Positions 2,860 to 56,340 of a stretch of DNA of 64,000 bases are shown one piece after another (the stretch's first letter is position 1; the number at the start of each line of letters is the position of its first letter). The notes under the pieces are model-generated. The model searched no databases. It was given only the letters and a program-made list of their open reading frames with translations, and was not told the DNA's origin. Source of the stretch: a virus; IMG/VR virus record IMGVR_UViG_3300020045_012645, positions 1-64,000 of that record; one strand, written 5' to 3'. The position numbers and the translations under genes were made by a program.

Positions 2860-3199
2860 CCAGATCAGTAACCAATCAGAAATCGAAGGAGGTACGACTG
2901 GTACCAACAAGAGAGAGTTGGACACAAGCCGTTAGGCAAAGAGTACCCAAGGAAGCTGGAACATTAGTAGAACTAGAACTAAGCTGACAGGCTGAGTGAT
3001 ATATAACTGGTACTTATGATATGCACCTATAGTTATCTTGTAAGTGAAGCAATGTGAAGTAATATATATTGGGATAAGAGATGTGAAGCACAGATAAGAA
3101 TGAGTAGAAGCCTATAAAGACTTCTTAAATTGTTTGCCTCTTAATGAAGCACCATAACGATATACACAAGACAATCGAAGTTGTCTGTCTGAGAAGAAC

Positions 3200-29634: not shown

Positions 29635-30036
29635 ATGTATCAAATATTACAATTAAATCATGAAGATGTAGATATTGCTAGTGAATTAATAAATAGTTCA
29701 ACTTGCGTATGTTCAGATTGTAATGTAAACTTAGAATTACATGAACAAATAGACAATAAAGAGTGCCTTGTTCGTAAATTATTATATAATAAAAATATAA
29801 TCGGAGTATACTCAATAGAATTTGATTCTGAATTTCTAGGAATAAGTTTTATATTTATAATTCCAGAATATAGAAAAACAATGATGTCGTATAGATTTTG
29901 CAAAGACTTGTTGAGTTATTTTACTAGTGATTTGCCAATATATATAATGACAGATGATACCTCTCTGTTTAAAAAATATGTAGAGCTAATTGAAGATAAT
30001 TTATATATTCTTAAAGGACTTAGAAAAAATGGGTAA
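29635..30036 (+). CDS. GNAT-fold acetyltransferase-like protein
   Basis: IIGVYSI...FIFIIPEYRK. Confidence 0.6.
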   Translation: MYQILQLNHEDVDIASELINSSTCVCSDCNVNLELHEQIDNKECLVRKLLYNKNIIGVYSIEFDSEFLGISFIFIIPEYRKTMMSYRFCKDLLSYFTSDLPIYIMTDDTSLFKKYVELIEDNLYILKGLRKNG

Positions 30037-31582
30037 GTCAGTAAAAAAAGCAGTAAAAAAAATAAAAAAAGTTGTTAGTAAAGTAACAAAAACTGTAGTT
30101 AATGTTGCAAAAGTTGGAGCTGCAGTTGGACTTGGATTTGCAGTCGGAGGATATGCTGGAGCTGCATATGCATTTAATAAATCTGGTGGATTTGAATTAA
30201 CAGCACAAGGTTTTACTGAAGCAGGAAATGTTGCAGGGCAACTCGGGTTTGATTCTTTAGAAAAAGAAACAGAACGATGGGCTAGTGACATAAAACAAGT
30301 AGGAAAAGTTTTAAGTGGAGAATATGCTAGAGATCAATCTAGAGTTGCAGATGCACAAGAACTTTATCAAAATGCATTAGATGATTATGAAGATGACTAT
30401 AAAGAAGCAGCAAGTATATACAATAGTGGATTAAATGAATTAATTGACAAAATGAATAGATTAATTGGTTTTCATGAAATATTTCAAATGTCTATGTCTA
30501 ACAAAATAGAAAATTATGGGTCATTTGTTCCACCAGATGAAGCTGAATTGCTTAAACTTTTTAATGAATTTAAAAAACTATCAGATAGGCTCAAGAATGA
30601 ATATGATTTTATAATTGGTTTAAAGTCTGGTGGTATACTTGAAAAAGTATTCCATTCCATGATTACTATTATTGGTGGTATAACAAGAGATATGATTGAT
30701 GCAATTAGTGGAGAAGCAGATACTCAAACATGGAAGAGAATCGGTGGAGTAATAGTTGCTATAGTCTTGGTTGTTATAGCAATTTTAGCTGCAATACCAA
30801 CTGGTGGAGCATCTCTTAGTTTAATTGCTGTTGCAATAGCAGTACTAACAGTTGTAAGTACATTATTAATGCTTGATGGAATGTATGGAAGTGGAAGTCT
30901 TATGGGTGCTACATTTGACTTACTTGATTTTGTTTTTAATGATGTTTTTAATTTTGATGATTTGATAGGATCTGATTTTAATAAATTTGATAGTGATCAC
31001 GAGGATTATCAAGAAATGACAATGTATTTCCAAATGGCTTTAGCTATATCTGCTATTATATTAAGTCTTGGTTCTAGTATGCTCTCATCTGGTTCTACTA
31101 CTGGACAATCTGGATATACTAGTGTATGGAGTGATTTTACAACTAGCACATCTAGTACATCGTTTCTTGGAATAAATGCGTCTACTTATAAATCAATATA
31201 TGATGTGTATCAAGGTGCAATGTCTGTAAAAGACTATATGACTGCTAATGATTCACACAATCAGCTTAAAGATAAACTTAATACAGATTTAGGTAAAATA
31301 AATAATGTAATTTCAAAGCAAACCAATAAGAACTTTATGAAACATTATAAAGATACTGAGTATTTTTTAAATGATCAACAACTTGTAATAGATAGATATT
31401 TATGGGAAGTTACTGCTGATAATATGTATACAGATCCTTATGCTGTTACTCCAGTAGCTAATATAAGATTTAGTCCAGACAAGAGAGAGAGAAAAGTTGT
31501 TTTTGGTTTTGAGGAATTGTTTGACTATGAAAGTCAAGCTGGCGGTAATAATTATTTTAAAAATATATTATATATGACATAA
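30029..31582 (+). CDS. Putative ejection/membrane-channel virion protein
   Basis: Lys-rich N-terminus, long hydrophobic hairpin AAIPTGGASLSLIAV, no Cys; first gene of cargo block. Confidence 0.65.
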   Translation: MGKSVKKAVKKIKKVVSKVTKTVVNVAKVGAAVGLGFAVGGYAGAAYAFNKSGGFELTAQGFTEAGNVAGQLGFDSLEKETERWASDIKQVGKVLSGEYARDQSRVADAQELYQNALDDYEDDYKEAASIYNSGLNELIDKMNRLIGFHEIFQMSMSNKIENYGSFVPPDEAELLKLFNEFKKLSDRLKNEYDFIIGLKSGGILEKVFHSMITIIGGITRDMIDAISGEADTQTWKRIGGVIVAIVLVVIAILAAIPTGGASLSLIAVAIAVLTVVSTLLMLDGMYGSGSLMGATFDLLDFVFNDVFNFDDLIGSDFNKFDSDHEDYQEMTMYFQMALAISAIILSLGSSMLSSGSTTGQSGYTSVWSDFTTSTSSTSFLGINASTYKSIYDVYQGAMSVKDYMTANDSHNQLKDKLNTDLGKINNVISKQTNKNFMKHYKDTEYFLNDQQLVIDRYLWEVTADNMYTDPYAVTPVANIRFSPDKRERKVVFGFEELFDYESQAGGNNYFKNILYMT

Positions 31583-31593
31583 AAGGAAATAAG

Positions 31594-32145
31594 ATGGCAG
31601 AAAGTTCATTAAATAATATCAATACTGGATCTTTAGCATTTAAACCCGTTTCAAAGAAAATAAATCCATATTCTCAATATAATGGATTAAATCAAGTAGT
31701 TAGTAATGAAAATGCTGCTATTGATTTTAATAATGGAGTATTTGACAACAGTAGTTATTCAGATCAAACATCTGGTACTACATATAATGGAAGTGCTGAT
31801 TATGGTTTAGGTAAACTTGGAAATATTGGTGATAATATTAATTATGATTATGGTTCTATTAAGCCAACAACTACAACTACAAATGAAGATTTGGGATGGT
31901 TTGGAGTAGGAGATAAAGGTACTAGTAAATTTTCAAGTACTATGGGTGGAATTGGAGCAGGTGTCGGAGCATTATCTGGATTAGGTTCTATGTATCTTGG
32001 AATGAAAAACTATAAGTTAGCAAAAGAAGCTAACGAATTAGAGAAAGATAAATATAATAGATTAATCAAAGAAGATGAAGCAGCTGATGCAAATAAAGCT
32101 AAATTTGCTGAAAATGTTGGTGGAGGAGCTACTTATGTCGGGTAA
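31594..32145 (+). CDS. N4 gp52-like small internal virion protein
   Basis: Gly zipper GGIGAGVGALSGLGSMYLGMKNYKLAK; synteny. Confidence 0.7.
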   Translation: MAESSLNNINTGSLAFKPVSKKINPYSQYNGLNQVVSNENAAIDFNNGVFDNSSYSDQTSGTTYNGSADYGLGKLGNIGDNINYDYGSIKPTTTTTNEDLGWFGVGDKGTSKFSSTMGGIGAGVGALSGLGSMYLGMKNYKLAKEANELEKDKYNRLIKEDEAADANKAKFAENVGGGATYVG

Positions 32146-34582
32146 TTATTATGATCCAAATCCAAATATAGCAAATGCTAGATTAAATTTTCAACAATAT
32201 GATACTAGTGGTTTTTTAAAAGGCGGTCAAGCAGTAAATGAATCTTTAAATTACTTAAGAGATAAAGAACTTTCTGATTTTAAGATTCAAAAAGAAATTG
32301 AAAAAGAGAAGTACCAGAGAAGTAGAGATGCTTTATCTGATGCACGATATGATAAGCAAGAACTTAGAAAAGATAAAGAGCAGCAAGCTACTGATTCTTT
32401 TTATAACTCTATGGCAGAAGGTCCAAAGCAAGTTGGTGGATTATATGGAGATACATTAGCAAAAGAGTCAGATAAATATGTAATGACTCAAGATGAAATT
32501 GCTAGTGGAATTATGAATCCTGAAGAAGCTAGAAAATCTGGAAATGAAGCATTAGCTAAGAAATTAGAATGGCAATTGAAAGCTGGAGATGCTGCAAATA
32601 AAGCAGTTACTGCTGATGCATTTAAAGAATCTAGACCAGAAATGTATTTAAGAATGATGGAAGAATCTAGATCAAAAGGATTGCCAGTTCTTCCTGGAAT
32701 GGTTGAGAAATATGAATCTGCTAAATTAGCTGAAGAAACTGCTAGTGCTAAAAAATTAGAAGATATAACAAAGTTAAAAGAAGATATATACAAAGACCAA
32801 TTATCTAATCAATGGAAATTAGTTGGAACAATTCCAAATAAAGATGGAAGCGTACAAACTGGTACTGACAGTGATGGTAATCCAATATATATTCCTACAT
32901 TAAAACAGCAAGTTAATTCTCAAAATAAAGCTAATAAAACATTTGATGAGCAAGTAGCAGATGACACTAAAATATTAAATTCAGTATTTGATGATATAAA
33001 AAAAGACGGAAAACCAGTTGTTTTAGAAAAAGGTACATCCGATGCTATTAGATCTGATATGTCAAAAGCATATATTAATGCTAGAAATAACTATCCAGAC
33101 GTAGATCCATCTGTTATTGCTAAAGCTGTTGCCTCAACTGCTGGATCGACTAGTGGTGGATATTTATGGGGAGATCCAGCTGCTAAATATAATGTTGAAG
33201 AATTAAACAATAAGCTAAAAGATTCTTCATACATTAAATCTGAAACAGATAAGATAAAAGCTCAACAACAAGTTGCACTACAAAACTCTGGTACTGATGT
33301 TGAAGATAGGCTTACAAAATTTGATATGGCTAAAGAATTAGTTTCTGGAACTAATGCAATTAATGCAAACAGACTATCTGGTATTAATAGCAAAATGGCT
33401 CAACTTAATCTTACTCCAGAGGAACGAAGACTTGCAAAGGCACAAGAATGGCTAAAATCAGAAGGTTTGATTTCAACTCCTTCATCTTCTTTGGCGCAAC
33501 AAGATTCACAAGTTAATAGACTTGCTAATATTAATAAAGAATTAACTGATCCGAAAAAATTAATTGCTGGTGTTCCAAATTCTTTAAAAATGATTGAAGG
33601 AATAAGTAATAGTTCATATGGAGATGCGGGTGGATACGCTGTTGGAATGGGATATAATTTAACAAAAAATATTGATAGTATAGATAGAGATTTCAAAAAT
33701 GCAAATATATCTCCAGAAAAAGCGTATATTGCTAGAACTAGACCACAAGATTTAGTTCTAGATAATGGTGAAGCAGAAAGACTTGCTCAGGTTGCGGTTA
33801 TTGATAGAATTGATAGATTAGATAATAAGATAGCTGGATACGGAAAAACATTTGACACATTGAGTCCGAATATGCAAGCTGCTGCATTACAAATGGAATA
33901 TAGAGGTGATCTTGGAAACAAAGATTATTCTAAACAACTTAAAGGATTTATTAGAAAAGATGATTTTGAAGGATTGAAAAATTATATTGTTGAAAATCAA
34001 AATACTTTACCTAAAGAGGTTGTTGATAGATTTGGTAAAAATCTTAAATATGATACTGGTGAATCTTTAAGTAGAGGAACTATGACCGATAAAGATAAAG
34101 ATATTTATCTTGCCAATGCAAGATTATCATCTAAATCAGAAGATGAAAAAGCTAAATCATTAAATAATTTAGATTCAAAATCAATTCCAAAAGAAGAACA
34201 AAAAATTAAAGATTATTCTGAATTAAAAAATGAAATAATAAATAGAACTGATGTGCTTGGTAATGAAATTGGTTCTTTTGATGAAAATATTATAAAAAAT
34301 AAAATAATGGATTCAAACGATGTTAACTCATATGAAGCTGATAAAATTTTTCAAAATATTAAAAAAGATATTTCATCTCAATATAGTTCTGCTGATAAAA
34401 ATTATAGAGAAGCATTACAAAAAGATATTAAATCTGGTAAGCAGAATTCAACAATAATTAATGGAAAAAATGCTGAAGAATGGTACAAACTTAGAAGTGA
34501 AAAAAGTATTATAGGAGATAATATTATAAATAATATAAAATCATCAACAAATAGATTAAAAGATTATTATTCATATGACTAA
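32135..34582 (+). CDS. gp51-position ejection protein with lysozyme-like (GH24) domain
   Basis: LKMIEG...YGDAGGYAVGMGYNL...FDTLSPNMQAAALQMEYRG; no Cys; GGAGG RBS. Confidence 0.7.
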   Translation: MSGNYYDPNPNIANARLNFQQYDTSGFLKGGQAVNESLNYLRDKELSDFKIQKEIEKEKYQRSRDALSDARYDKQELRKDKEQQATDSFYNSMAEGPKQVGGLYGDTLAKESDKYVMTQDEIASGIMNPEEARKSGNEALAKKLEWQLKAGDAANKAVTADAFKESRPEMYLRMMEESRSKGLPVLPGMVEKYESAKLAEETASAKKLEDITKLKEDIYKDQLSNQWKLVGTIPNKDGSVQTGTDSDGNPIYIPTLKQQVNSQNKANKTFDEQVADDTKILNSVFDDIKKDGKPVVLEKGTSDAIRSDMSKAYINARNNYPDVDPSVIAKAVASTAGSTSGGYLWGDPAAKYNVEELNNKLKDSSYIKSETDKIKAQQQVALQNSGTDVEDRLTKFDMAKELVSGTNAINANRLSGINSKMAQLNLTPEERRLAKAQEWLKSEGLISTPSSSLAQQDSQVNRLANINKELTDPKKLIAGVPNSLKMIEGISNSSYGDAGGYAVGMGYNLTKNIDSIDRDFKNANISPEKAYIARTRPQDLVLDNGEAERLAQVAVIDRIDRLDNKIAGYGKTFDTLSPNMQAAALQMEYRGDLGNKDYSKQLKGFIRKDDFEGLKNYIVENQNTLPKEVVDRFGKNLKYDTGESLSRGTMTDKDKDIYLANARLSSKSEDEKAKSLNNLDSKSIPKEEQKIKDYSELKNEIINRTDVLGNEIGSFDENIIKNKIMDSNDVNSYEADKIFQNIKKDISSQYSSADKNYREALQKDIKSGKQNSTIINGKNAEEWYKLRSEKSIIGDNIINNIKSSTNRLKDYYSYD

Positions 34583-34661: not shown

Positions 34662-37600
34662 ATGGCAAAAGACTTTGAACAAAGATGGGCTGAAGTTGCA
34701 CTAAACAATAGCTTTACTACTGATACCGAATATAGTCAACCAGTTGATGCATCTATTTCACTTACAAATAGATTACTAAATTTAGAAAATACTAAACAAG
34801 AAAAAATTAAAAAATTAAATGAAACTACAAGCACTTTAGCTGGTACTGATGGCATTAAACCAATTCCACAATATGATGAAAATGTTAAAATAGTTGGAAT
34901 GGAAGATGCCGATACTGCATTACTTTCTGATGATAGACAAGTTAGGATTTCAGATCCATCTCTTAGATATGATGCTGCTGAAATAAAACATGCTGGCGAT
35001 GATTCATTTAAAGAAAAATTTCTTGATGTATTTGGACTTGGAGCTACTGGAAAATCTGATTTTGCTGAAAAAAGACAAAAAGAGCAAGCTGCTAGATTAT
35101 ATAATAAACCTGTTCAGTATGTTACCGAACAAGACATACTTGATGTTGGTAATATGCAACAAGTTCAAGCTGTGGCTGATTTATATAAAAATCCTGGTGA
35201 TACAAAATTTGAAGCTCCATTAATTAAAAATTCTACACAACTTGATTTTAATACTGGATTGGACATTGATGTTGGATTACAAAAATCTGGTACTGATGAA
35301 TATGGTAGAACTCTTGGATCATTTATCAATAAAAATACTGGTGAAAACATTACAAGAATACAAGCAGAAAGTCAAAGAACTAATGCATTTGCACCTGGTA
35401 CTAATGATTATACAGTTAATGAAAGTGGAGAAGTTGTAAAAGTAAATCCTGGTATTATTGATAGACTTGAGAATGCCGCTAAAGGTGCTGGATATCAATT
35501 AGCTGGTGGAATTGCAGATACATTAAATCTTGTACCTAGAGCTGTTGAATATGCTGCTACAGATAAAACTTGGGATCAAAGCAAAGGTTTATATACTGAA
35601 ACAGATCAAGAAGCATTAAAGAAATCAATTGGATATGATGATAGATATACTCAATATGTTGGCAAAGAAGCTACTGAAGCTGTTAAAAAAGCATATGAAG
35701 ATGGAAACTACAAAGAATTAGCTGGTGCATTCTGGGATGCTGCTACTACTCCAGAGGTACTTGGAGAAAGCACTGGGTTCTTATTATCAATGTTTATGCC
35801 TGGTGCTTTAGCTAAAAAAGGTGTTAGTGCTGTATCTGGAATTAATACTGCTGCTAAAGAATTAATTGCTGCTGACAAAACATTATCTAAAGTTGATGCT
35901 ATTGCTAAAGCAGAAGATGAAGCTGGAATTGCATATAAAATATCAAAAGGTGTTGCTGGTCAAACTGGACAAATTGGTATGGCAGAAGCTCAAACTCAAG
36001 ATGCTGCTTCTGAATATGAAAAAACATATGGTGAACAAATGTCTTCAGAAAGAAGAACTGGTGCATTCCTGCTTAATCTTGCTAGTGTTAACATGGATGC
36101 TGCTATGGGTAAAGCAATACTTCTTGGTAATGATCCACTTGCTAAAGTTATCAAAGATACACTAGTTAATTCTGATGATGTTGTTAAAAAAACAATGATT
36201 GAGAAAATTGCTAAATCTGTTGGTCTTGATACTGCAAGAGTTGCTGGTGCTATACTTGAAGAAGCTGGTACTGAAGCTACACAAGCTGGAATAGAGAATG
36301 TTTCAAAATATTACAATGCAGACAAAGGTGTTGGTGTTGCAGATGTATTAGAAAATACTGCATACGATATTGGTGGAGCAGCGTTAATGGGTGGAGCAGG
36401 TGGTGCTCAAATGAACAGAACTGGAGAAGTATCTCGAAAATTATTTGATGGAAGTATTGGTAAACTAGTACCAGAGAATTTCATTAACTCAATAAATAAA
36501 GATGTTGATACAAAAGTTCAATATTCATTTACTCCAGATTTACAGTATACAGAAAGACCTGGTTCTGAAAATTTAAGCAAAGATGAAATGGCTTTCGAAG
36601 GTAATCAAACAATTAGTGATATACAAAAATATTCTACAAAAGCTATTGCTGAATCTATGTATAAAGGCAGAGACATCAAAGATGCTAGAGGAAATAGCAT
36701 AACTCCAGAAGCTGGAATTAGTGGAATAATAGATACCATTAGACATGAAAATTTAGCTAAAAATAAATATGTTGTTGAAGATAGACAAAACAGAATGAAT
36801 CAAATAAATTCTATTGAAGATGAATTAATTAGAAATACTGAAAAAGCAAAATATGAAGAATCACTGTATGGTTCTGATCTAATTGACAAAGAGGAATATG
36901 TTAAGAATTTTATCAATACATATTCTGCAATGACAAAACAACTAAAAGATCCAAAATTCGATGTTAATGGAGATATTAGAAATAAATCTATAGCAAATAC
37001 TACCAAAGCATTTATCTCTAAAGCAAATGCAGAACCAGATAGCTATATCAAAGATAGATTATTATCTGAATTCATCAATGGATATATTGCTGAATCCGCT
37101 AAGAATACTATATATGGTAAAGAAGGTGTTGATATTAAACAATTTGGTTCCGTTGGTGAATTATCTAAAGATGTTATGTTTGGAGATAAAGCAGAAGATT
37201 ATATTAAAAGTCTAAAAGCTGTAAAACAAGTAGTATTTGGAAGTATGCCTAAAAATAAAGATGGAAATTCTGGAGAACTAGAAAAAGAACTTGATCAAAA
37301 AATTAATGCATTTGAAAAAATGTATTTTGATTATAAAAATAAATTAAATGAAATGAAATCTAAAAATCCAGATGCTGATTTAACACTATTAAATGCTAAA
37401 ACAAAAGAAGATGTTAATAGAGAAATAATGGATGGATCAGGTTTTATATCTAGTATATTTAAACCATTTAAAAAGTCTATTAATGGTCATATGAATATGA
37501 TTAGAAAAAATGTTAATAATATTAGAACAGATAAAACTGGAGCGCTTAGTCAAACTAAATCTATTGATCAAATGTTGACACAAGTTACTAAATTTAATAA

Positions 37601-40600
37601 ATTTGCTGATACAAGAACAGTTAATAATAGTGATGCATATGCTGATATATTAGAAGCTAGATATGATGGAGTTAGTGATTCAGAACTTGCTCAAATGTTA
37701 TTCTCAAGAGAAAATGAATTTAGTAATATTAGAAAAGACGTAGACGCTTCAAATATTAATGTTGACGAATTACCAAATGAACTTAGAAAAAAAAGAGTTC
37801 CTGTTTATAGAGTAGGACTTGACAGTAAAAAGATGACAAATGAATTGTCTACTGGCGAGATAATGATTAATGAAGCAAAAGCATTTATTAAAAATTTAGA
37901 AGAAGCTAGACTTTTATTAGTTGGTAAAATTTCATTACAACAAGAATTACTTGGTACTGTAAAAAACAATAAAGATAGAAAAGCTATTGAAGAAACTATT
38001 GAAAAACTTCAAGAAAAAGTTGATGAAATTAATGCTACAATAGCTAATCAAGAAAGCAATACAGCAATAATAAATGAACTAAGAACTAAATTATTAACTC
38101 CTGAAGTTGTTAAAAACTTAAAAAGATTATATGCTCAAAGTAAGTTTAAAGAAGAATCTTATTTTGATAAATCAAGAGTACCAGCTATTGCGACTGAAGC
38201 AAATGTAGATAATATTTCAACAAATAAAGAAAATGGAGATACAAATGGAACAAAAACAACAACAGAAGATACAAACGTTGAATCAGGAAATCAAGAGTCT
38301 GAATCAACAATTGTCGAAGGAAAAAGAGAATCTGAAGCTAGAACAAAAGAAACTGGAAAAGATGGAACTATTGAAGAAAAAATTAGTCCTACAGTTGAAG
38401 AATCTAGTAAAATAGATAATACCATATCTGGTACTGATGATAAAGTAAATGTAGTACCAGATATAGTTGAAGAAGAAATTGATGTTGATAGCTTAAGTCT
38501 TGATGATCAAATTGCTTACTATAGAAAACAAGTAAAAGCTATATCTAAAAGTGAAAGAAAAATTGATGTATTAAAATCTGATATAGACTCTAGAGTTAAA
38601 AAGGCTAATGCAGTACTTGATATGCTAGATAGTATTCAAAACAGTTCAATTAAACATTCAGAAAATATTACTAAATATGAAAAAAGAATATCAGAAATTG
38701 AAACAAAATTATCTGATAAATCTAATAAATTAAGTGAAATTGAAAAGTCAGAACTTAAAAAAGAATCTTCTGGTAAAGCAATTGCGTTAGCAGATGAAAA
38801 AAGATATTTAGAATCTGAACAAAAAAATATTAAAAAGTATAATGGAATCAAAAAGTCAAATTCTAAAAAAGTAAAAGAAATTCAAGTCAAACTTGCTAAG
38901 TTAAATGAATTCTCTGATAAAAATTTGAATGATGGTCAAAAACTATTAATTAACAATAAAATTAGAACATTAGAAATTCAACAACATTCTATTAAATGGA
39001 AAGATTCTGTTGTTCAAAAATCATTTGAAACAATTAAAGAATTAGAAGGACAACTTGAAAAAGATAGATTATCTAGTACTGATAGTTTTGAACTTAATGA
39101 ATTAGAATATAAAATTAAAGTTTCACAAAGAAGATATGCAAATGATAAATTTGTTGATAAAACAATTAGAGATAAAGCCATTGAAATTTGGAAAGAAGAT
39201 TTAGAAAAAAAATTAGCGATAGATGCTACTAAAAATATTGATGAAAGTAGAAAAAAATATTTAGTATCATCTAAAATTTCTGAATCAATTAGAATGTTAG
39301 AAAATTATGAATATCATAATTTATTTATAAATGATGTAGTTACTTATACAACTACTGATAAAAAATATCCACTAATTAGAAGTTCAATTAAAAACAATGA
39401 TGTTGTTGCTGGATATAATTTACTTGATGATATGAGAAAAGGAATTGTTAAATTATCTAAAAAAGATAAAGTTTATTCTGCACTATCAAAAGGTATAACT
39501 AAAAAAATGGAAGATAGCGAAGTTGTAGCTAAATTAATTAGCAATTATTTTGCGTTAAAAGGTAATAGCTATACAAACAAAATCAACAAAGAATATCCAA
39601 TCGGAAGTGAATCTAGAAGTTCATTTGATGCTAAACTAAGTAACTATTTATTGTATATACACAATTCTTCATTTGTTGATAATGATTTAATTATTAGAGA
39701 TTCTTCAAATAAATTAAATGCAGATGGTAGTAAAGTTGGAGAATCTAAATCTCCAGATATTGTTAATTATGAAATTAAACAAGGTAAAGTAATTGCATTA
39801 GATAAAGATGGAAATGTAGTTGATACTAATCAAAGTGTAAACTTATTATCTTTATTATTTGGAAATGAAACTAAAGAAATTAAACTTGGAAAAGATGAAT
39901 TAAAAGTTAGCCATACTAAATTTCCTAAGTATTTTGCTGAAGTTGTTAAGGTTGAATCAATCAAAGAGATCAGTAATATGTATAAAATATTGATTACTAA
40001 TCCAAATACTGATACTGAAACATTTGATGGTATATGGGGAATTGATCCATCTAGCGATAACGCTGAAGAATTAAGAACTGAAGTTTATGAAAACTATTTA
40101 TCAAAAGGAATTATTCCTGAATCAGTTATTGTTAGAGCATTGGGTCAAAGAATATACAAACAATTGCCTATTACATTTGATAGAAATTTATTAGAAAGAT
40201 ATACAGAAGAAACTATTATATCTCAATTAGGAATATATGCTATTGGACAATTTGAGAATGAATCAAATTCTGTTAAAGTAAATATTGAAGACGAAGTTAA
40301 AGAATATGGTATTTCAAGATGGAAAGAGATTAATCCAGTAAATAAAAAACTTGAAACACAAATGATTAAAATTGGCGATAAAACTATGAATGCTATTCAA
40401 CTTCCTATGAATGAGCAAGCTATGAAATTATTAGTTGATTTATCTGAAACTCTTGATTATTTATCTGTTTCTGAAGATAGAAAAACTCCTAGTTTTGAAC
40501 CAATAACAAGAGTACCAGATACAATTAAACATAAGAAAACTAAGTTATCTGATACTGCAATTGAAACTATTAAAGATTATCAAAGTATTGCATATAAATT

Positions 40601-43574
40601 TGAAGATAATATTACTGAAATGTACAATCTATGGAAAGATGATAATACTAGAAAACTATCTTATATGTATGCTGGTATAGATACTCCAATGATTGAAAAA
40701 ATGACAAGTAGTGAAATAGAAAAAGCATTGACTAAAAATAGAAATGAAAGACTTGAATTAGACTCATTAATGAAGTTCTATGAAGAAGCTGGTACTGATA
40801 AAGAATTTTATTTACCATGGGACTTTGTTACATCTGGAAGATATATGGTTAGTTCAAACATAAATCCTCAAGGTAGTAAAATTACTAGATTTTTAGTTAG
40901 TACAGAAGGTACTAGAACAGATATAACATTAAAAGCTAGAGATGGTGTTGTATCAATTGATGATAAACAATTAGGAATGATTAAAAGATCACTTGCTCAA
41001 TCGTTAGATTATGGATTAGATAAAGACTTGGACTTATTTGTTATAGACAAGATGGAAAAAGATATCAAAATAAGCGATGACCTTATTGTAACATTTGGAA
41101 CTAGTCCAAAAGCTAAAGTAATTAGTGATGCATTTAATTATTTCAAAGAAATCATTTTATCTGGTACTGATGGTAAAGCGTTATCTGAGTTAACAGAAGG
41201 TGCTAAACTTGTTGAGAAATTAACTTTAAAAGGTATTTCAGAAGAACCAGAATTTGAAGGATTTCATGCTGTACAAACTATTAGAGAGTTGGCTAAGTTA
41301 AGCATTAAAGCTGATGAATTGAAAGAAGCATCATTGAGTGTTGGTTCTGAGAAAATTAACCATGAAGAATCTGTAGGCACTCATTTTGTTATAGAAGCCG
41401 ATGGTATTACATCTGGAATGATGATTACGCTTGCTCAAATTATGAGTGATGATGCAATTGCATTATTTGAAAAAGGTGGTATTTATACTGAAGAATCTGT
41501 TGAATTTTGGAATGAAATCACTCAGGCATTTGAAAAAGCTGGATTAATTAAAACTGAACATTTAGCTGATCTAAAACAAGAAGATGGTTCATATAAAATT
41601 ACTCATGGATTATTGAATAGAATTGGTAAAGTAATTTCAGATAAAAATAATAAAGAAAAAGTTGATTCAGTATTTGAAAAAGACGAGAATGATACAAGAA
41701 GAACCAGAGCTGGCTTCAAAGACTTCTATAATACTATAGCTTCATCTGTTACTAAAGATTTACCAGCAATTAGAAAAGCATTAGAAAAAGATTATTCTAA
41801 AAAATTAGATAAATATAACAATATGGAAGATGGATTTGAAAAAGACAATTTTTATAAGTATGTAAATCAAGCATATTTGTCTGTAGCGTTGATTGATGTT
41901 GTTGGTGCAGAAATTAGTAGGTCAATGGCTAAAGATCCTGTAATGGTGTTCATATACGGTTCTAGTACAGGAAGTATCAAGAATAAAATTTTACAAAACT
42001 TAGTTAAATCTACAATTGAGAAAAAGATTAAAAAATTATCAGATGAAGCCAATGCTTCTAAAAGTGGATTTATTAAAGTTGATGAAACATTCGTAAATGT
42101 ACTTAATGCTATGAATATTCAATTAAATAAAACTCAAGGATTATATGGTGTTGCAACTATTCCTAATACTTCAAAAGTCGTAGACTATACAAGAAATATA
42201 AATGGAGACATAGATGAAAGTGTTGTTAAGAATCTAGAACCAGATGTATATGATGGATACGATGGATATGTAAAAATTAATATTAGAGATTTACATAAAG
42301 TAAAAATAGATGGATCTATGCTATCTGATATTGCTATACCATCTTTAAATTCATATGGTGCTGCATTTGAGAAAGCATTTGATGATAATTTTGCCTTTAT
42401 TGGTGAATATAGAGATTCTATCAAAGCACTTGAAGTTGTTAGATTTGAAATATTTGATTTTAAATTTAAAGAAAAAGTTACTTCATTAATTAAAGATAGA
42501 AGTACTTCAGATTTTGCTTACAATCCAACAAATGAAGAACTTGATGTAATCCTTCAAGAATTAATAAACGAAGGTTTTGGACATGTTATTAAAGATATAA
42601 ATGGTGGTTATCATTCATTTGAGAAATCACAAGTTGAAGATTCTATGAATAGAACAAGTTTAAGAACTCACAATGAAAATAATTTAAGAGATGACAGTAC
42701 AACATCTGCATCAATTGACATTAGAAAAGAAGTTGTAAATACAGGAGCAGCTCCAGTTACAAGTATTCATAATCAAGATGGATGGCAAGTTAGATATGCT
42801 ACATTAAAAACTGGTATTCAAAATGTATTCGATGCTATTATATCTGGACTAGACAATCACGAAGATGGAACATACTTGTACAATGAAGGATTTAGCAAAG
42901 CAAATACTAAACATTCAATTTTACAAAGTCAATTAGTTGATATGGAAAATATTTTAGATAAACTTGGCTCAGATGGAATTGCTGAGTTATTATCTGGTAT
43001 TGATGCTTCATCTTCTATAAAGATATTAGATGTATTTGAAAAAATGACTAAACCATTGGTTAATAAAATGGCAGAAGAAAATTCTGAAAGCAAAAATGGA
43101 TTTGCAATAGCAGAAGCTAAAAAAGACATTACTAAACTTGACGCTCTTAGAAGATTTGCAAAAGACACAACTGTGTCATCAAATGAAATACTTGCTTCAT
43201 TAAATAAAAAAGTAGATAATGTTGCAATTGCTCACTTGTATGCAATAGATACTGGTAAGCAATTCTCTGGTACTCTTGGTGGATTCAAAGATATGAAAGT
43301 AGATACTACTAGAATCTTTAATTTTTATAATGATATAATCTATAAAGCAATAAGTATGCTAGATCAAGATTTAGTAGCTGAAGAAACTAATACTAAAACT
43401 GGTTTTGGTTATGTAGTTGAAAATTCATTACTTGGTGATTCTGCTGAAGTAAAAGCAACTAGAAAAAAACTATACAATGAAGCTTACTACAACGCAATAA
43501 ATCTTGGACTTAAGCCAGATCAAGTTGATGAAATAATGAAAATAGTAGAAGATCTTATGGATTGTAAACCATAG
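34662..43574 (+). CDS. Virion-encapsidated RNA polymerase (N4 vRNAP-like), N-terminal and polymerase domains
   Basis: VTSGRY, NPQGSKITR, motif A EADGITSG, motif B RSMAKDPVMVFIYGS, motif C VFDA. Confidence 0.93.
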   Translation: MAKDFEQRWAEVALNNSFTTDTEYSQPVDASISLTNRLLNLENTKQEKIKKLNETTSTLAGTDGIKPIPQYDENVKIVGMEDADTALLSDDRQVRISDPSLRYDAAEIKHAGDDSFKEKFLDVFGLGATGKSDFAEKRQKEQAARLYNKPVQYVTEQDILDVGNMQQVQAVADLYKNPGDTKFEAPLIKNSTQLDFNTGLDIDVGLQKSGTDEYGRTLGSFINKNTGENITRIQAESQRTNAFAPGTNDYTVNESGEVVKVNPGIIDRLENAAKGAGYQLAGGIADTLNLVPRAVEYAATDKTWDQSKGLYTETDQEALKKSIGYDDRYTQYVGKEATEAVKKAYEDGNYKELAGAFWDAATTPEVLGESTGFLLSMFMPGALAKKGVSAVSGINTAAKELIAADKTLSKVDAIAKAEDEAGIAYKISKGVAGQTGQIGMAEAQTQDAASEYEKTYGEQMSSERRTGAFLLNLASVNMDAAMGKAILLGNDPLAKVIKDTLVNSDDVVKKTMIEKIAKSVGLDTARVAGAILEEAGTEATQAGIENVSKYYNADKGVGVADVLENTAYDIGGAALMGGAGGAQMNRTGEVSRKLFDGSIGKLVPENFINSINKDVDTKVQYSFTPDLQYTERPGSENLSKDEMAFEGNQTISDIQKYSTKAIAESMYKGRDIKDARGNSITPEAGISGIIDTIRHENLAKNKYVVEDRQNRMNQINSIEDELIRNTEKAKYEESLYGSDLIDKEEYVKNFINTYSAMTKQLKDPKFDVNGDIRNKSIANTTKAFISKANAEPDSYIKDRLLSEFINGYIAESAKNTIYGKEGVDIKQFGSVGELSKDVMFGDKAEDYIKSLKAVKQVVFGSMPKNKDGNSGELEKELDQKINAFEKMYFDYKNKLNEMKSKNPDADLTLLNAKTKEDVNREIMDGSGFISSIFKPFKKSINGHMNMIRKNVNNIRTDKTGALSQTKSIDQMLTQVTKFNKFADTRTVNNSDAYADILEARYDGVSDSELAQMLFSRENEFSNIRKDVDASNINVDELPNELRKKRVPVYRVGLDSKKMTNELSTGEIMINEAKAFIKNLEEARLLLVGKISLQQELLGTVKNNKDRKAIEETIEKLQEKVDEINATIANQESNTAIINELRTKLLTPEVVKNLKRLYAQSKFKEESYFDKSRVPAIATEANVDNISTNKENGDTNGTKTTTEDTNVESGNQESESTIVEGKRESEARTKETGKDGTIEEKISPTVEESSKIDNTISGTDDKVNVVPDIVEEEIDVDSLSLDDQIAYYRKQVKAISKSERKIDVLKSDIDSRVKKANAVLDMLDSIQNSSIKHSENITKYEKRISEIETKLSDKSNKLSEIEKSELKKESSGKAIALADEKRYLESEQKNIKKYNGIKKSNSKKVKEIQVKLAKLNEFSDKNLNDGQKLLINNKIRTLEIQQHSIKWKDSVVQKSFETIKELEGQLEKDRLSSTDSFELNELEYKIKVSQRRYANDKFVDKTIRDKAIEIWKEDLEKKLAIDATKNIDESRKKYLVSSKISESIRMLENYEYHNLFINDVVTYTTTDKKYPLIRSSIKNNDVVAGYNLLDDMRKGIVKLSKKDKVYSALSKGITKKMEDSEVVAKLISNYFALKGNSYTNKINKEYPIGSESRSSFDAKLSNYLLYIHNSSFVDNDLIIRDSSNKLNADGSKVGESKSPDIVNYEIKQGKVIALDKDGNVVDTNQSVNLLSLLFGNETKEIKLGKDELKVSHTKFPKYFAEVVKVESIKEISNMYKILITNPNTDTETFDGIWGIDPSSDNAEELRTEVYENYLSKGIIPESVIVRALGQRIYKQLPITFDRNLLERYTEETIISQLGIYAIGQFENESNSVKVNIEDEVKEYGISRWKEINPVNKKLETQMIKIGDKTMNAIQLPMNEQAMKLLVDLSETLDYLSVSEDRKTPSFEPITRVPDTIKHKKTKLSDTAIETIKDYQSIAYKFEDNITEMYNLWKDDNTRKLSYMYAGIDTPMIEKMTSSEIEKALTKNRNERLELDSLMKFYEEAGTDKEFYLPWDFVTSGRYMVSSNINPQGSKITRFLVSTEGTRTDITLKARDGVVSIDDKQLGMIKRSLAQSLDYGLDKDLDLFVIDKMEKDIKISDDLIVTFGTSPKAKVISDAFNYFKEIILSGTDGKALSELTEGAKLVEKLTLKGISEEPEFEGFHAVQTIRELAKLSIKADELKEASLSVGSEKINHEESVGTHFVIEADGITSGMMITLAQIMSDDAIALFEKGGIYTEESVEFWNEITQAFEKAGLIKTEHLADLKQEDGSYKITHGLLNRIGKVISDKNNKEKVDSVFEKDENDTRRTRAGFKDFYNTIASSVTKDLPAIRKALEKDYSKKLDKYNNMEDGFEKDNFYKYVNQAYLSVALIDVVGAEISRSMAKDPVMVFIYGSSTGSIKNKILQNLVKSTIEKKIKKLSDEANASKSGFIKVDETFVNVLNAMNIQLNKTQGLYGVATIPNTSKVVDYTRNINGDIDESVVKNLEPDVYDGYDGYVKINIRDLHKVKIDGSMLSDIAIPSLNSYGAAFEKAFDDNFAFIGEYRDSIKALEVVRFEIFDFKFKEKVTSLIKDRSTSDFAYNPTNEELDVILQELINEGFGHVIKDINGGYHSFEKSQVEDSMNRTSLRTHNENNLRDDSTTSASIDIRKEVVNTGAAPVTSIHNQDGWQVRYATLKTGIQNVFDAIISGLDNHEDGTYLYNEGFSKANTKHSILQSQLVDMENILDKLGSDGIAELLSGIDASSSIKILDVFEKMTKPLVNKMAEENSESKNGFAIAEAKKDITKLDALRRFAKDTTVSSNEILASLNKKVDNVAIAHLYAIDTGKQFSGTLGGFKDMKVDTTRIFNFYNDIIYKAISMLDQDLVAEETNTKTGFGYVVENSLLGDSAEVKATRKKLYNEAYYNAINLGLKPDQVDEIMKIVEDLMDCKP

Positions 43575-43603
43575 GATCTTATTTTAAATAAAAAAGGAAT
43601 CTT

Positions 43604-46600
43604 ATGGGATGTAATGTTGAAAAAGCAAAAGTTAAAATAGCAGATATAATTAATTCAGGAATTAAAAATAATAGTGTATCGAGTTCTGAAAAAGCTATGA
43701 AGCAATCAGAACAATTTGCAGATATTCTTGACAAAATTAAATCAAATTATGTTTTAAACAAAGATGTAAAAGAAAATGCTAATTCAAATATTACTGAACA
43801 ATTAGTACCAGCTGAAGAAAAAGTTCCTGCTGAAAAAGAAACTAAAGGTTCTATGGATAGTAAAACAACTGAGAATATTGATATTATATCTACTGATGTT
43901 ACAAAGATAAATATTAAAGATGAATTACTTGGATTTGTTGCAGCTGGTGCTTCAAAACATGACAAAAATGTTGATATGGATTTCTTTGGAAGTTTTATTG
44001 AAACAATTAAAAAAGTATCTGCTAATTTAGAGAAATATGGATTAGACAAGAATATTGAATTTAGACAACATAAGATGGCTACAGATAGATATACTCGAGG
44101 AACATATACGTTTGGTGAAGATGTTGCCAAAGACAACAGTCATCTCTCTGGCTCTGATAATGGATACATGTTTGAAATAGATGGTGGAGTTGTAGATATT
44201 TATTATGGTAAAGGATTCTATAATGAAACTGAAGATGGAATTGTTCAAAATGAATTAAGACAAGATATTTCGTTAAGTACAAATACTGAGTTAATTATGC
44301 ATGAGATTCTTCACTCAATGATCGAGAAAGCATACGATCAAGATAAAGCATTGAATAGAGCATTGTTCTTATTGAAAGAACAAGTTATGAAAAAGATTTC
44401 ATACAAAGATTTATTAGGAAAAGATGAAAGTGAAGCTACAAATGCTGAGATTCAATTAGCTAAAGATATATATGCTTATATGCATAATCCAACTGAGTTT
44501 TTAGCTTATGCTGCTACTAATCAGAATGTGTTTCTTGCAATAAAAGATTTGACGATATCTAATACTTTAATTGGAAAATTTGAAGCTAAGCGTGGAGATA
44601 CAATTGGTAAATTCAAACAGTTTTTAAATAAATTTATTGATGCTATAAATAAAGTATATACAGCTTTAACAACTGGTGAAAGTGCTAAGATTGAGTTTGA
44701 TAAAATATTAAATGGACTTATTGAAGTAAATACTAAAATTGAAATTGGTGCATTAGATATTAAAATGCAAAAAGAATTTAAACCATATGCTGCGTTTGGA
44801 GTTGGTGAAAAATTCAAGAAAACAAATGACTGGATGCTTGAAGCTGAAAAAGGTACATTTAGTAAATTAAAAGATGTATGGTCTGCAGATAGTGTTAGAA
44901 ACAAAGCTGAAGGAGCTGGTAGATTTATTGAGTCAATTGGTGATTGGAGAGGACTTCAATGGCTTAGAGATACAAGACTAATATCTGATTTAGTTACTGA
45001 CATGGTTGAAGATACTACTTCTGATGGAGTTGCTTGGTTTTATGAATCTGTGCGTCATATCAAGGGTACCAGAGAGAAGGATAAGCTAGACTTTTCTTCA
45101 GTTATGAAAAAGAAAGTTGGAGCTGAATTTGGTGAGTTTAGCAAAGAAGAAAGATCTGCTGTTACATTTATGCTACAAGGAGACTGGAAAGCTCTTGGAG
45201 TTAGTTTATCTGAATATAAAGATATGTTAACTGACGAATCAAAAGTTGAAGCTAGGATTTCTGACCTTAAGAACCAGATAAAGCATCCTGAATATATCAA
45301 TCAATCTGCTATGCTTGGATACTATTTGGTTAATGGAGAAGCGAAAGGTTCTGCTACTATGAAAAGTGCATATCAAATTGTGCATAGATTTCATACTGGA
45401 AAAGAATCATCTCCATTACAAAGTGATATAGATACTGATTCAATGATTAAATTGGTTGATGAATTGTCTTCATTGTATGCGATTAAATATACTGAAAAAA
45501 GTATTAAAGATAATATTGTAAGAGCTATAGAAAGAGATGCTGATGTTGTTAGTTTTGGAAGTGATACATACTATGCTTACAGATTAAAAGAGCAAAACGG
45601 ACAACTTGCTATGTTTGGCAAATATATGGATAAAGGATATGTTAGAAAATCTGGTACTGTTGACATGAAATTTGATATTATTCCAGAAAGTAAATTAATT
45701 AGAAATAGTAAAATATCTGCATTAAATCATAAAATTATTAGAGAACTTCCTGAAGTTCAAAACAATATGCATGATGCTGGATTAAATGATTCATTTGAAA
45801 AATATTATCTTGTTGTTGAAAGAGATAGGGATCCAGCTAGAACTCAAGGTGTTCTTGATGATATATCTATTATTGAGCAAGGACAAGAGCTTGCTTCATT
45901 TACTGCTGGTAAAGAAATTGACTATGCTGACATGAAAAACTATACAATTAGAAGATTTGGTGCACATGAGAAAACATATTTAAATAAACCAATAGATGAT
46001 AGTATTGAAGCCATGAGAGATAGAAAAAGCTATAGCATATCAAATATAGATATTAATGGAAATATTGTTGGATATGCAGAACCAGTTAGTGAAGCTGATA
46101 AAATTAATTATGGAAGAATTAACAATGATATTGCCGATGTTATTGGAAATACTGCATCGCATATTCAATCTAAAGAAAAAGCATTATTAAATAATCAAAA
46201 TTTTATTGAATTATTAATAGCTGATAGCAATAATAATATTGGAACACCTGGTTATGTATTTATCAGTTCAGATTCAAAAGAAATTGAATTACAAAAATAC
46301 TGGGCAATGATTCCTGATTATAGTAGATCATTTATTGAGCATGAAACTGCCGTTAAAGGATTATGGGTTAAAAGAAGTAGGATTAATAATATCGTTGGAT
46401 ATAAAGATGTTAGTATAAGTAATATGAAATTGTTTGGATTAAAACTTGAAGATTATCCTCAATGGCAAAAAGCTATTAAGATAGTTGAACATACTTGGAA
46501 AGAAATTGCTAGTTCATATAAAGAGATAATCGTTAAGCTTATGCCAAATGTTATATTATCAAATGCTACAAGTAATATGTTTGTTGCAATGAGACATGGA

Positions 46601-47407
46601 ATTGGACCTATGGAATATGCTAAATCATTTAGAAAATCTTGGTCTGAATTGAGTGAATATATTGAATTGAATGAAGAATTAGTTAGTTTAAAAATTGATA
46701 GAGATATTGGTAAAAAAGGATTAAGTCCTAAAATAGCTGAACTTGAAAAAAGGCTAGAACGAAATGGAATGCATCCATTAATTAAAGATGGACAGTTTTC
46801 TATGATATTTGAAGACTTAGATAAAGATTTAATTGGAAAAACTACACATTTAAAAGATGTAGTTAGTTCTAGAATTGAAAAAACATTTGGTAAAAATGTT
46901 GCAGATAATCTTGAAGAATTTAGACAAAATGTTTATGTTACTAAAGACACAAGGGGCCATCAAGCTATTGAAAAGTTAACATTATTCAATGATATTATTA
47001 ATAAAAAAATAATTATGGATAAAATGATGCAAGATATTAATGAAATTAATTTTGCTACTACAGAAGCCAGAGAAGCTGCTGAGATAGATGTTCTTAATTA
47101 TCTTGATCAATTATTCGTAAACTATTCTTACTTGACTAATAAGTATGTTAAATGGGCTTCAGATACTAATACAATACTGTTTATTAAATATTTTTTAAGA
47201 GCTGGGAAAGCATCTTTGAATATGATGCGAAGAATGCCACTTGGTTCAACTATTGCAGAAGCATTGGATTCATTTGTAATGAATGTTCCAGATCCTATTG
47301 ACCAATATATGAGTCCAATTAGTACATTAAGTGGAAAAGTTGGATTAAGTCCAGTTGATATGCTAAGCGAGATATTATTCCCTAGAATCATTACTGTTAT
47401 GCCATGA
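43604..47407 (+). CDS. Separate gene equivalent to the vRNAP C-terminal domain (zincin HExxH)
   Basis: IMHEILH...EFLAYAATN; HPLIKDGQFS, LFVNY blocks resembling N4-like vRNAP C-termini; own AAGGA RBS; different frame from upstream ORF. Confidence 0.75.
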   Translation: MGCNVEKAKVKIADIINSGIKNNSVSSSEKAMKQSEQFADILDKIKSNYVLNKDVKENANSNITEQLVPAEEKVPAEKETKGSMDSKTTENIDIISTDVTKINIKDELLGFVAAGASKHDKNVDMDFFGSFIETIKKVSANLEKYGLDKNIEFRQHKMATDRYTRGTYTFGEDVAKDNSHLSGSDNGYMFEIDGGVVDIYYGKGFYNETEDGIVQNELRQDISLSTNTELIMHEILHSMIEKAYDQDKALNRALFLLKEQVMKKISYKDLLGKDESEATNAEIQLAKDIYAYMHNPTEFLAYAATNQNVFLAIKDLTISNTLIGKFEAKRGDTIGKFKQFLNKFIDAINKVYTALTTGESAKIEFDKILNGLIEVNTKIEIGALDIKMQKEFKPYAAFGVGEKFKKTNDWMLEAEKGTFSKLKDVWSADSVRNKAEGAGRFIESIGDWRGLQWLRDTRLISDLVTDMVEDTTSDGVAWFYESVRHIKGTREKDKLDFSSVMKKKVGAEFGEFSKEERSAVTFMLQGDWKALGVSLSEYKDMLTDESKVEARISDLKNQIKHPEYINQSAMLGYYLVNGEAKGSATMKSAYQIVHRFHTGKESSPLQSDIDTDSMIKLVDELSSLYAIKYTEKSIKDNIVRAIERDADVVSFGSDTYYAYRLKEQNGQLAMFGKYMDKGYVRKSGTVDMKFDIIPESKLIRNSKISALNHKIIRELPEVQNNMHDAGLNDSFEKYYLVVERDRDPARTQGVLDDISIIEQGQELASFTAGKEIDYADMKNYTIRRFGAHEKTYLNKPIDDSIEAMRDRKSYSISNIDINGNIVGYAEPVSEADKINYGRINNDIADVIGNTASHIQSKEKALLNNQNFIELLIADSNNNIGTPGYVFISSDSKEIELQKYWAMIPDYSRSFIEHETAVKGLWVKRSRINNIVGYKDVSISNMKLFGLKLEDYPQWQKAIKIVEHTWKEIASSYKEIIVKLMPNVILSNATSNMFVAMRHGIGPMEYAKSFRKSWSELSEYIELNEELVSLKIDRDIGKKGLSPKIAELEKRLERNGMHPLIKDGQFSMIFEDLDKDLIGKTTHLKDVVSSRIEKTFGKNVADNLEEFRQNVYVTKDTRGHQAIEKLTLFNDIINKKIIMDKMMQDINEINFATTEAREAAEIDVLNYLDQLFVNYSYLTNKYVKWASDTNTILFIKYFLRAGKASLNMMRRMPLGSTIAEALDSFVMNVPDPIDQYMSPISTLSGKVGLSPVDMLSEILFPRIITVMP

Positions 47408-52968: not shown

Positions 52969-53398
52969 TTTTTTCCAATTCACTAATTTTAATAAATTTT
53001 TGATTAGTTGTTTTTGATTCTAAACCACCTAGTTCTTTTATATATCTTCCTGTTTTAATATATGTAAGATTAGATAGTAAGTTATCTGAAATTTGATTTA
53101 GTTCTAGTCCAGTGTATAGACAAGTTTTGAGATTGTTTGATTTAACTAGTTTTAATAATTTAATTAAATAATCTTCTTGCCATTCTCCTCCATAAAATAA
53201 GACACAAGTTATGTATTTACTTCTTGTAATTAGGTCTTGTAATATATTTTCTGTAAGTTCTTCGCCATATTTAGGATTCCATGTTTCTGTAGAGTGACAA
53301 CCTTTGCATGCTAATTTACAACCAGATATCGAAAGTGCCAGAGATATTTCATCTGGTACTTCCTGCAACACAATTTGTTTAGAACTATAATGTAACAT
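52961..53398 (-). CDS. nrdG: Anaerobic RNR activating protein (radical SAM)
   Basis: QEVPDEISL, GCKLACKGCHS, GGEW, KTGRY. Confidence 0.93.
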   Translation of the reverse strand: MLHYSSKQIVLQEVPDEISLALSISGCKLACKGCHSTETWNPKYGEELTENILQDLITRSKYITCVLFYGGEWQEDYLIKLLKLVKSNNLKTCLYTGLELNQISDNLLSNLTYIKTGRYIKELGGLESKTTNQKFIKISELEKNE

Positions 53399-55314: not shown

Positions 55315-56340
55315 CTAAAAATCGTCGAAGTCGATAGAACCTTTTGAGTAGTTAACAACATTTCCTTCAAAGAAGTTTGTTCTTTGGTCATTGAAACTTG
55401 CATATCCATCAACCCATGGAATAGGGTGTTTCACTCCGTATTCTGGTTTATATCCAACTGCTGCAAGTCTTTTATCTGCAAGATATTGAATATATTGTTC
55501 GATGATTGAATCTGTAAATCCTAGAATTTGTCCTTTTGTGATATGCTTACCCCAATTTGATTCTAATTCTACTGCTTTTCTAAACATTTCTCTTACTAGT
55601 TTTTCAAGTCTTTCTGTAAATAGCTCTGGTCTTTCTTTTCTTACTGAATTAATCATGTTTTGGAAAAGTAATAGGTGAGTTACTTCATCCCTTTGTATGA
55701 ATTTAATCATTTGAGATGAACCTAGCATTTTTCCTGATTTACCAAGTGCATACATAGCTGCAAATCCTGCATGAAAGTATATACCTTCAAGAATTTGATT
55801 TGCAAATAATGCAAGAACCAATTTTTCATCTGTTATATCTCCAGCCAATTCACTATAAACAAGAGAAAGATATTTATTCTTCTTTAAGAGTACTGAATCT
55901 GTTTTCCATAAATTATAAATTTCATCTGTGTTTTCAGAAATAGACTCAACCATAACGGCATAAGATTTACTATGATTTGCTTCTTCATAAGATTGTCTAG
56001 ATAAACAAGCATTTATTTCAGGAGCTGTGATATATGGATTTATGTTGTCCATTAGATTATTTGTTTGTAAAGAATCCATAGACATTAAATTTGATAAAAC
56101 TAGATCATACATTCTTTTCTCTGGTTCTGTAAGATATTTATAATCTTTGGCATCCCCTGTCATTTGAACTTCTCTTGGAAACCAAGTATTAGCTTCCATT
56201 GTGTCCCAAAGATTTAATGCCCATTCATATTTCATTGTAGTAAAGTTTATCATACCATCTGGATTACCACCGAAAACCTTACGGTTTCCAGTAGTTTCAT
56301 TTGATTCTGTATTAAATACATTTTTTCTATTCATAATCAT
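55315..56340 (-). CDS. nrdB: Class Ia RNR beta subunit (Campylobacterota type)
   Basis: [35 protein letters not shown]. Confidence 0.95.

Follow-up and report, generated by a model that had tools for sequence, protein, structure and literature searches.

The window, a 64-kb stretch of DNA that begins at position 1 of a complete phage genome of 100,021 bp in IMG/VR (IMGVR_UViG_3300020045_012645), encodes a virion RNA polymerase (vRNAP) of the phage N4 type as two separate proteins, as judged from profile and pairwise sequence matches. The genome has direct terminal repeats and a G+C content of 29 to 30%. Two long open reading frames, ORF1 and ORF2 (Table 1), lie in tandem behind a set of putative ejection proteins. 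Residues 1792 to 2292 of ORF1 matched PHROG 2206, a profile of N4-type vRNAPs, in its polymerase region (positions 1054 to 1501; E value, 1.4e-41), and the RNA polymerase profile phrog_414 also matched ORF1 (E value, 1.2e-7). Residues 214 to 1236 of ORF2 matched the C-terminal part of the same PHROG 2206 profile (positions 2331 to 3374; E value, 5e-85), and blastp aligned ORF2 with residues 2701 to 3468 of N4 gp50 (E value, 9e-18). A profile of the C-terminal domain (CTD) family matched the N4 vRNAP entries in PDB (E value, 1e-103), although a PDB search with a single sequence found no match, and a Pfam search gave no match for either ORF. The HEILH motif at ORF2 residue 233 has its counterpart in HELVH at residue 2228 of N4 gp50 (PMC13434306). 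Because ORF1 contains the polymerase part and ORF2 the C-terminal part, the break falls at the polymerase-CTD boundary, in agreement with the proposal of a first-pass annotation, made from the letters alone, that the gene was split.

Each of the two proteins contains a single cysteine, and the two cysteines face each other across the break. All cysteine counts were scripted. The only cysteine of ORF1 is residue 2968, third from the end (..EDLMDCKP-stop), and the only one of ORF2 is residue 3 (MGCNV). Cysteine makes up 0.95% of residues genome-wide (259 of the 27,222 residues encoded by 93 ORFs, each at least 100 amino acids [aa] long), so that about 40 would be expected in the 4,237 residues of ORF1 plus ORF2; there are two, both within 3 residues of the facing ends. 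The three ORFs upstream (30029 to 31582, 31594 to 32145, and 32075 to 34582) contain none, nor do N4 gp50 (3,500 aa), gp51, and gp52. These counts agree at every point with the first-pass annotation, which had placed one cysteine third from the C terminus of the polymerase protein and one at residue 3 of the next, 1,267-aa ORF, described the neighboring cargo proteins as cysteine-free, and gave the N4 vRNAP as a single cysteine-free chain.

The locus resembles N4 gp50 and other vRNAPs of the Schitoviridae (Pseudomonas phage DEV gp71; PDB 9PNR/9PNT family) in its homologous RNA polymerase (RNAP) domain and CTD (C1 with HExxH and a helical C2) and in its near-total exclusion of cysteine. Gene order is also that of N4, with a portal, a gp57-like protein, the major head protein, and a virion protein ahead of the ejection proteins and the vRNAP. 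Unlike gp50, a single 3,500-aa cysteine-free chain, the window chain is cut at the linker into pieces of 2,970 and 1,267 aa with one cysteine per cut end, and the genome is 100 kb, versus about 70 kb for N4. The ORF1 start is taken as the ATG at 34662, with a TTG at 34644 as an alternative. Ahead of the polymerase domain, ORF1 residues 1 to 1790 (34662 to 40000) have no Pfam or PHROG match, and this region is about 750 aa longer than the N4 N-terminal domain plus linker.

Table 1. Coordinates of the split vRNAP genes, their junction, and associated features (window positions unless a locus is named)
Feature	Position	Strand	Description
vRNAP piece 1 (ORF1)	34662..43574	+	2,970 aa; extended N-terminal region and N4-type single-subunit RNA polymerase domain
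vRNAP piece 2 (ORF2)	43604..47407	+	1,267 aa; homologous to the N4 gp50 CTD (subdomains C1, with HExxH, and C2)
TGT codon, C-terminal Cys of piece 1 (..LMDCKP-stop)	43563..43565	+	
TGT codon, N-terminal Cys of piece 2 (MGCNV)	43610..43612	+	C3 invariant in alignment A1
HEILH, zincin-like HExxH of CTD subdomain C1	44300..44314	+	ORF2 residues 233 to 237; invariant in alignment A1
Intergenic spacer	43575..43603	+	29 nt; AAGGAA at 43594 to 43599, 4 nt ahead of the ATG
RNA hairpin A	43549..43580	+	Arms 43549 to 43560 and 43569 to 43580; Cys codon in loop, UAG stop in 3' arm
Alternative RNA hairpin B	43569..43607	+	Arm 43569 to 43580 pairs with 43595 to 43607 (Shine-Dalgarno AGG and piece-2 AUG)
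Three Cys-free proteins upstream	30029..34582	+	517, 183, and 835 aa; position of N4 gp53/gp52/gp51 ejection proteins
Two-Cys middle ORFs of relatives	L008 5359-5991; L010 3364-5997		Similar in L009, L011, L012, L015, L024, L026, L027, L033, and L050

Conservation of the split and its cysteines

No GenBank phage matched the window at the DNA level, no close relatives were found in IMG/VR with either ORF2 alone or alignment A1, and none were found among GTDB genomes. All 21 full-length ORF2 homologs (52 to 91% identity) begin M-x-C or MAGC, and in 20 of them this is the sole cysteine. In all 10 ORF1 homologs (31 to 47% identity across the last 600 aa) there is a single cysteine, as the last or third-last residue, with endings such as ..L[IVM]NC-stop, ..NCKP-stop, and ..KDC-stop.

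Family-wide counts came from the best 150 matches to ORF2 among 1.84 billion cluster representatives (50% identity). A cysteine occupies one of residues 2 to 7 in 75 of 88 stand-alone CTDs and is the only cysteine in 73. For fused vRNAPs of at least 3,000 aa, 19 of 21 representatives have no cysteine at all.

Gene junctions were surveyed in two IMG/VR scans (90 loci), which together with L002, a metagenome contig from ENA, gave 86 distinct IMG/VR and metagenome loci. Cysteines were present on both sides of 43 junctions, on neither side of 18, and on one side of 1. In the two-sided class the upstream cysteine is 1 to 6 residues from the chain end and the downstream cysteine is at residue 2 to 6. 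The 18 cysteine-less junctions are those between a gp51-like neighbor and a first vRNAP piece or a fused vRNAP. The lone one-sided junction, that of L002, is an artifact, produced by an in-frame TGA that hides a ..VNCKP-stop tail. This TGA (L002 9905 to 9907) lies 16 codons before the conserved end of the ORF1 homolog, at a position where relatives have Arg, and is the sole TGA in about 3,090 codons; a sequencing error, a polymorphism, and local readthrough are all candidate causes.

In total, the split chains contain 90 cysteines in 109,654 residues, only 3 of them internal, and 31 of 32 fused genes in the locus survey have none. No first piece has an N-terminal cysteine, and no last piece has one at its C terminus. 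At least four changes between the split and fused states are needed on a FastTree tree of 115 CTD regions, and relatives show the split in more than 30 independent assemblies, with ordinary start signals. The terminal cysteines expected by the first-pass annotation to persist in split homologs are thus found in the clade of the window, in most stand-alone CTDs, and in 43 of 43 true IMG/VR-locus junctions, and its second expectation, homology of ORF2 to the vRNAP CTD, is borne out by the PHROG 2206, gp50, and family-profile matches given above.

A candidate disulfide between the two pieces

In N4 the CTD is the encapsidation determinant of the vRNAP. The RNAP-CTD boundary is a disordered 23-residue linker (residues 2102 to 2124), the CTD inhibits the polymerase effectively only in cis, and the protein passes through a tail of about 35 Å in a beads-on-a-string manner (PMC13434306). 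N4 biology has yet to explain how a protein of at least 3,500 residues enters the capsid and passes through a 35-Å tail. Against this background, the two facing terminal cysteines are probably joined by a head-to-tail intermolecular disulfide for packaging and injection. The phage encodes the vRNAP as two proteins with translation starts of their own; the cut falls at the flexible polymerase-CTD linker, and neither piece has a cysteine other than the one at its cut end. Once the virion is assembled or released, the two thiols would form a disulfide and so restore an unbranched "single chain." The CTD could then carry the linked polymerase piece into the capsid, and the linked pieces would exit the narrow tail as one thread. 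Exclusion of all other cysteines would keep that thread free of branches and loops; strict exclusion of cysteine from ejected proteins would make sense because other thiols would branch or loop a thread that must stay linear. On arrival, the reducing cytoplasm would cut the bond and free the polymerase from its inhibitory CTD. Since the N4 CTD represses the polymerase effectively only when tethered, reduction of the bond could double as activation. We infer the formation of the bond in this phage, its timing, and a reduction that would release or activate the polymerase.

A structural precedent for such a bond is found in cyanopodophage A4 (Anabaena phage A-4L). In its pre-ejectosome, as solved by cryo-electron microscopy, the C-terminal helix of gp27 is inserted in gp26 and fixed there, in the virion, by a disulfide between gp27 Cys1715 and gp26 Cys5 (PMC12002296). 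When checked, gp27 (1,717 aa) and gp26 (1,114 aa) proved to be products of adjacent genes with one cysteine each, the third-last residue of gp27 and residue 5 of gp26. The window genes share with this pair the arrangement of adjacent, codirectional genes with giant products, a single cysteine near the C terminus of the first and near the N terminus of the second. A4 differs from the window phage in being T7-like and in lacking a virion RNA polymerase.

A second comparison is provided by Alteromonas phage vB_AmaP_AD45-P1, also an N4-related podophage of about 100 kb with direct terminal repeats and a vRNAP split at the RNAP-CTD boundary (2,481 and about 1,405 aa), though only distantly related to the window phage (CTD about 25% identical). 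Its split region (ORF127 and ORF126) was resequenced by polymerase chain reaction (PCR) and the two polypeptides were detected on a gel (PMC3821669; NC_021532). The pieces end in ..SKHCKQ-stop and begin with MTIC.., have one cysteine each, and are separated by a 7-nt gap. The authors of that study read the cysteines as evidence against injection and did not remark on their terminal location (PMC3821669).

Structure prediction of the putative complex points weakly in the same direction. The last 271 residues of ORF1 and the first 330 of ORF2 gave an interface score (ipSAE) of 0.46, versus 0.00 for the best of three controls. In calibration, 58 of 80 solved complexes attained this mark, as did 2 of 110 mismatched pairs, and passes of up to 0.60, a range that holds 7 of those 80 solved complexes and both passing mismatches, count as weak. 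Runs agreed in at least 43% of contacts, with a partner predicted local distance difference test (pLDDT) score of at least 58, and the score may reflect the solved N4 structure.

Several observations weigh against a disulfide. A disulfide has so far been observed for no split vRNAP, and the AD45-P1 gel showed two separate bands, the accessible part of that report not stating whether conditions were reducing (PMC3821669). The A4 precedent is an analogy because neither gp26 nor gp27 shows detectable homology to the vRNAP pieces (no blastp match better than an E value of 0.05; hhalign probabilities of 0.3% and 1.6%). About five apparently full-length CTD representatives have no cysteine (P0041, P0061, P0075, P0132, and P0167); for P0061, no counterpart was found in IMG/VR. 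Virions assemble in a reducing cytoplasm. No sulfhydryl oxidase turned up when the phage was searched for Erv1, though the control of that search was uninformative, and no glutaredoxin was found in the phage. The window also encodes an anaerobic NrdD-like (53385 to 55181, minus strand) and an aerobic NrdA-like (56337 to 58757, minus strand) ribonucleotide reductase, and the phage may therefore live where oxygen is scarce. The presence of both reductases suggests that the host encounters oxic as well as anoxic conditions, a point relevant to the timing of any virion disulfide. Phages of anaerobes can have disulfides in their virions, as exemplified by the inter-subunit disulfides of the gut phage crAss001 (PMC10172136). 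Overall, the disulfide is supported rather than demonstrated, by strong comparative evidence and one structural analogy.

Parts of this picture are already known. Suppression of cysteine in Schitoviridae ejection proteins is established (PMC11445570), split vRNAPs have been described, and the authors of the A4 structure described a single bond and did not state a general rule (PMC12002296). What is new is the general rule linking cysteine-free ejected proteins, split vRNAPs, and the A4-type bond, together with the insertion of cargo discussed below; our literature search found no paper stating a terminal-cysteine rule. Such a rule would make split vRNAP genes functional designs, though annotation pipelines and surveys treat them as errors, and it would offer a simple redox switch by which an inhibitory CTD would separate from its polymerase inside the cell.

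Other explanations for the paired cysteines and the gene break

The two terminal thiols could act together in another way, by sharing a metal ion in a clasp like a zinc hook or by forming a transient link needed for assembly alone. Strict two-sided co-occurrence requires a pairwise function and leaves the chemistry unspecified, the cytoplasm is reducing, and acidic residues that could aid metal binding often precede the C-terminal cysteine (..EEC, ..KEC, ..KDC, and ..MDC). With one cysteine per chain, however, there are just two thiolate ligands, neither a conserved His nor another cysteine lies nearby, and the sole solved example of the signature is a disulfide (PMC12002296). We consider joint action of this kind unlikely.

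Each cysteine could instead work alone, as a modification site, as a virion anchor, or, in the CTD, as a ligand for the zinc site at HExxH (a "cysteine switch"), with pairing as a by-product of the new termini. The conserved zincin-like HExxH does lie about 230 residues from the N-terminal cysteine of the CTD piece, and a small residue at position 2 (G, A, or S) would expose that cysteine near the mature N terminus. Independent roles fit poorly with the distribution of the cysteines, since none of 62 junctions is one-sided once the L002 artifact is set aside, first pieces lack an N-terminal cysteine and last pieces a C-terminal one, and cysteine pairs also flank cargo proteins that have no match to the vRNAP CTD. 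Fused vRNAPs, moreover, retain the HExxH yet have no cysteine. The chance that each residue acts by itself seems small.

A different kind of explanation would have the ORFs joined in translation, by frameshifting, by readthrough, or by a bypass between matched AUG/UGU codons 47 nt apart, with the cysteine codons and the repeat around them as recoding signals. The junction in the window has features that invite this view. Two 16-mers (43552 to 43567 and 43599 to 43614) are identical at 14 of 16 positions and lie 47 nt apart, and a strong hairpin forms over the ORF1 stop. Matched blocks around a gap of about 47 to 50 nt and a hairpin over the stop codon are also features of the T4 gene 60 bypass, and in L002 the two ORFs are in frame with a single TAA between them. 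Unlike T4 gene 60, the window has an ORF2 with its own ribosome-binding site (RBS) and ATG, a stop that does not adjoin the take-off codon but lies two codons past the cysteine codon, and a geometry that is not conserved in relatives, many of which have overlapping genes; the window does not belong to the T4 gene 60 class. Gaps range from −11 to +26 nt in the 43 IMG/VR-locus junctions and measure 29 nt in the window and 45 nt in L002, and all three relative frames occur. Many junctions overlap in the ATGA or TAATG style typical of translational coupling, and each downstream piece has its own ATG 1 to 5 codons before the cysteine, with an RBS evident in the window and in L002. As the first-pass annotation had read them, the window ORFs are in different frames and ORF2 has a dedicated RBS; AAGGAA serves as its Shine-Dalgarno sequence, and the ORF2 frame opens only past the ORF1 stop. 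A recoding signal, furthermore, would need no cysteine codon in proteins that otherwise exclude cysteine, and AD45-P1 virions show two polypeptides (PMC3821669). Because gaps and frames are not conserved and downstream pieces have their own ATG starts, bypass, frameshifting, and readthrough are excluded as a general mechanism, and recoding at this particular junction is highly improbable.

The repeat and hairpins have a better reading at the level of RNA. Hairpin A (−15.6 kcal/mol; z score, −4.5) and hairpin B (−12.4 kcal/mol; z score, −3.3) are each more stable than all 200 shuffled sequences, and they are mutually exclusive because both use the arm that contains the ORF1 UAG. Hairpin A leaves the ORF2 Shine-Dalgarno sequence and AUG free, and hairpin B sequesters both. 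The short duplication noted in the first-pass annotation is real, and both 16-mers are complementary to this single arm; it is better described as two alternative hairpin partners and is not conserved in relatives. In L002 neither the repeat nor the alternative pairing was seen, only a short, nonsignificant hairpin over the stop codon. Locally, the hairpin pair may serve to couple the initiation of ORF2 translation to termination on ORF1, and it is no part of the protein-level cysteine rule.

That the split stems from faulty sequencing or assembly, or marks a gene in decay, has a negligible probability. RefSeq flags the AD45-P1 region as a "potential frameshift," and one survey concatenated split vRNAPs as gene-calling errors or readthrough (PMC10654107); yet the same break, with conserved start and cysteine features, is present in dozens of independent assemblies at 22 to 91% identity, both window ORFs are long and intact, and the AD45-P1 break was confirmed by PCR resequencing and by both polypeptides on the gel (PMC3821669). 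A split intein with protein trans-splicing was rejected: there is no Pfam match in either ORF, and with the cysteines 3 residues from the chain ends, Hint-fold fragments (about 100 and 35 aa) would not fit on the two sides of the break.

Cargo proteins at the polymerase-CTD linker and neighboring genes

The break between polymerase and CTD is in many loci occupied by further proteins. These middle proteins, 210 to 1,010 aa long, contain exactly two cysteines, one per end. They are not part of a canonical vRNAP, and some match phrog_1017 or phrog_652. Two have weak NADAR matches (PF08719; E values, 1e-5 and 1.6e-4), under the Pfam cutoff, which hint at an injected counter-defense enzyme.

Cargo is also found fused to the CTD. 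Among cluster representatives of 2,000 to 3,030 aa, 16 of 21 have an N-terminal cysteine, and these 16 are fusions of cargo and CTD, none with a polymerase match. Three such fusions that were scanned contain DprA/SLOG-like domains, and one of them also has phrog_1017, phrog_2072, and a Dda-like helicase. The idea that these long proteins mark a second split point, at the boundary between the N-terminal region and the polymerase, was rejected, as they have no polymerase domain and are the cargo-CTD fusions just described.

Relatives of ORF2 itself, including one 88% identical, have a DprA-like domain directly behind the N-terminal cysteine; the window ORF2, the shortest form, has no such cargo. 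Additional domains placed between the N-terminal cysteine and the CTD were observed in the ORF2 relatives P0002, P0003, P0005, and P0012 and in P0048, P0094, and P0102, and are of the DprA/SLOG-like (phrog_768), phrog_2072, phrog_1017, and Dda-like helicase types. From these domain matches, injected cargo appears to have a hot spot at the RNAP-CTD linker, and the terminal-cysteine rule would mark this linker as the site where injected enzymes dock, a number of them counter-defense-like.

A broader extension of the disulfide between the two vRNAP pieces has about an even prospect of being correct. Split N4-like vRNAPs, by analogy A4-like proteins, and possibly crAss-like ejected proteins would form a disulfide-stitched "ejection train," joined head to tail through single terminal cysteines into an unbranched thread. 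Cargo enzymes (NADAR-like, DprA/SLOG-like, and Dda-helicase-like) would be plugged in at the RNAP-CTD linker, and the reducing host cytoplasm would uncouple the cars, releasing uninhibited polymerase and cargo.

Upstream of the vRNAP genes in the window, ORFs of the ejection operon are assigned to gp51 and gp52 by position only. Inside this otherwise cysteine-poor structural and ejection module, positions 28572 to 29624 encode a 350-aa cysteine-rich protein with 8 cysteines, the C-terminal half of which is 2-oxoglutarate-Fe(II) oxygenase/endonuclease-like (phrog_61 and phrog_2297).

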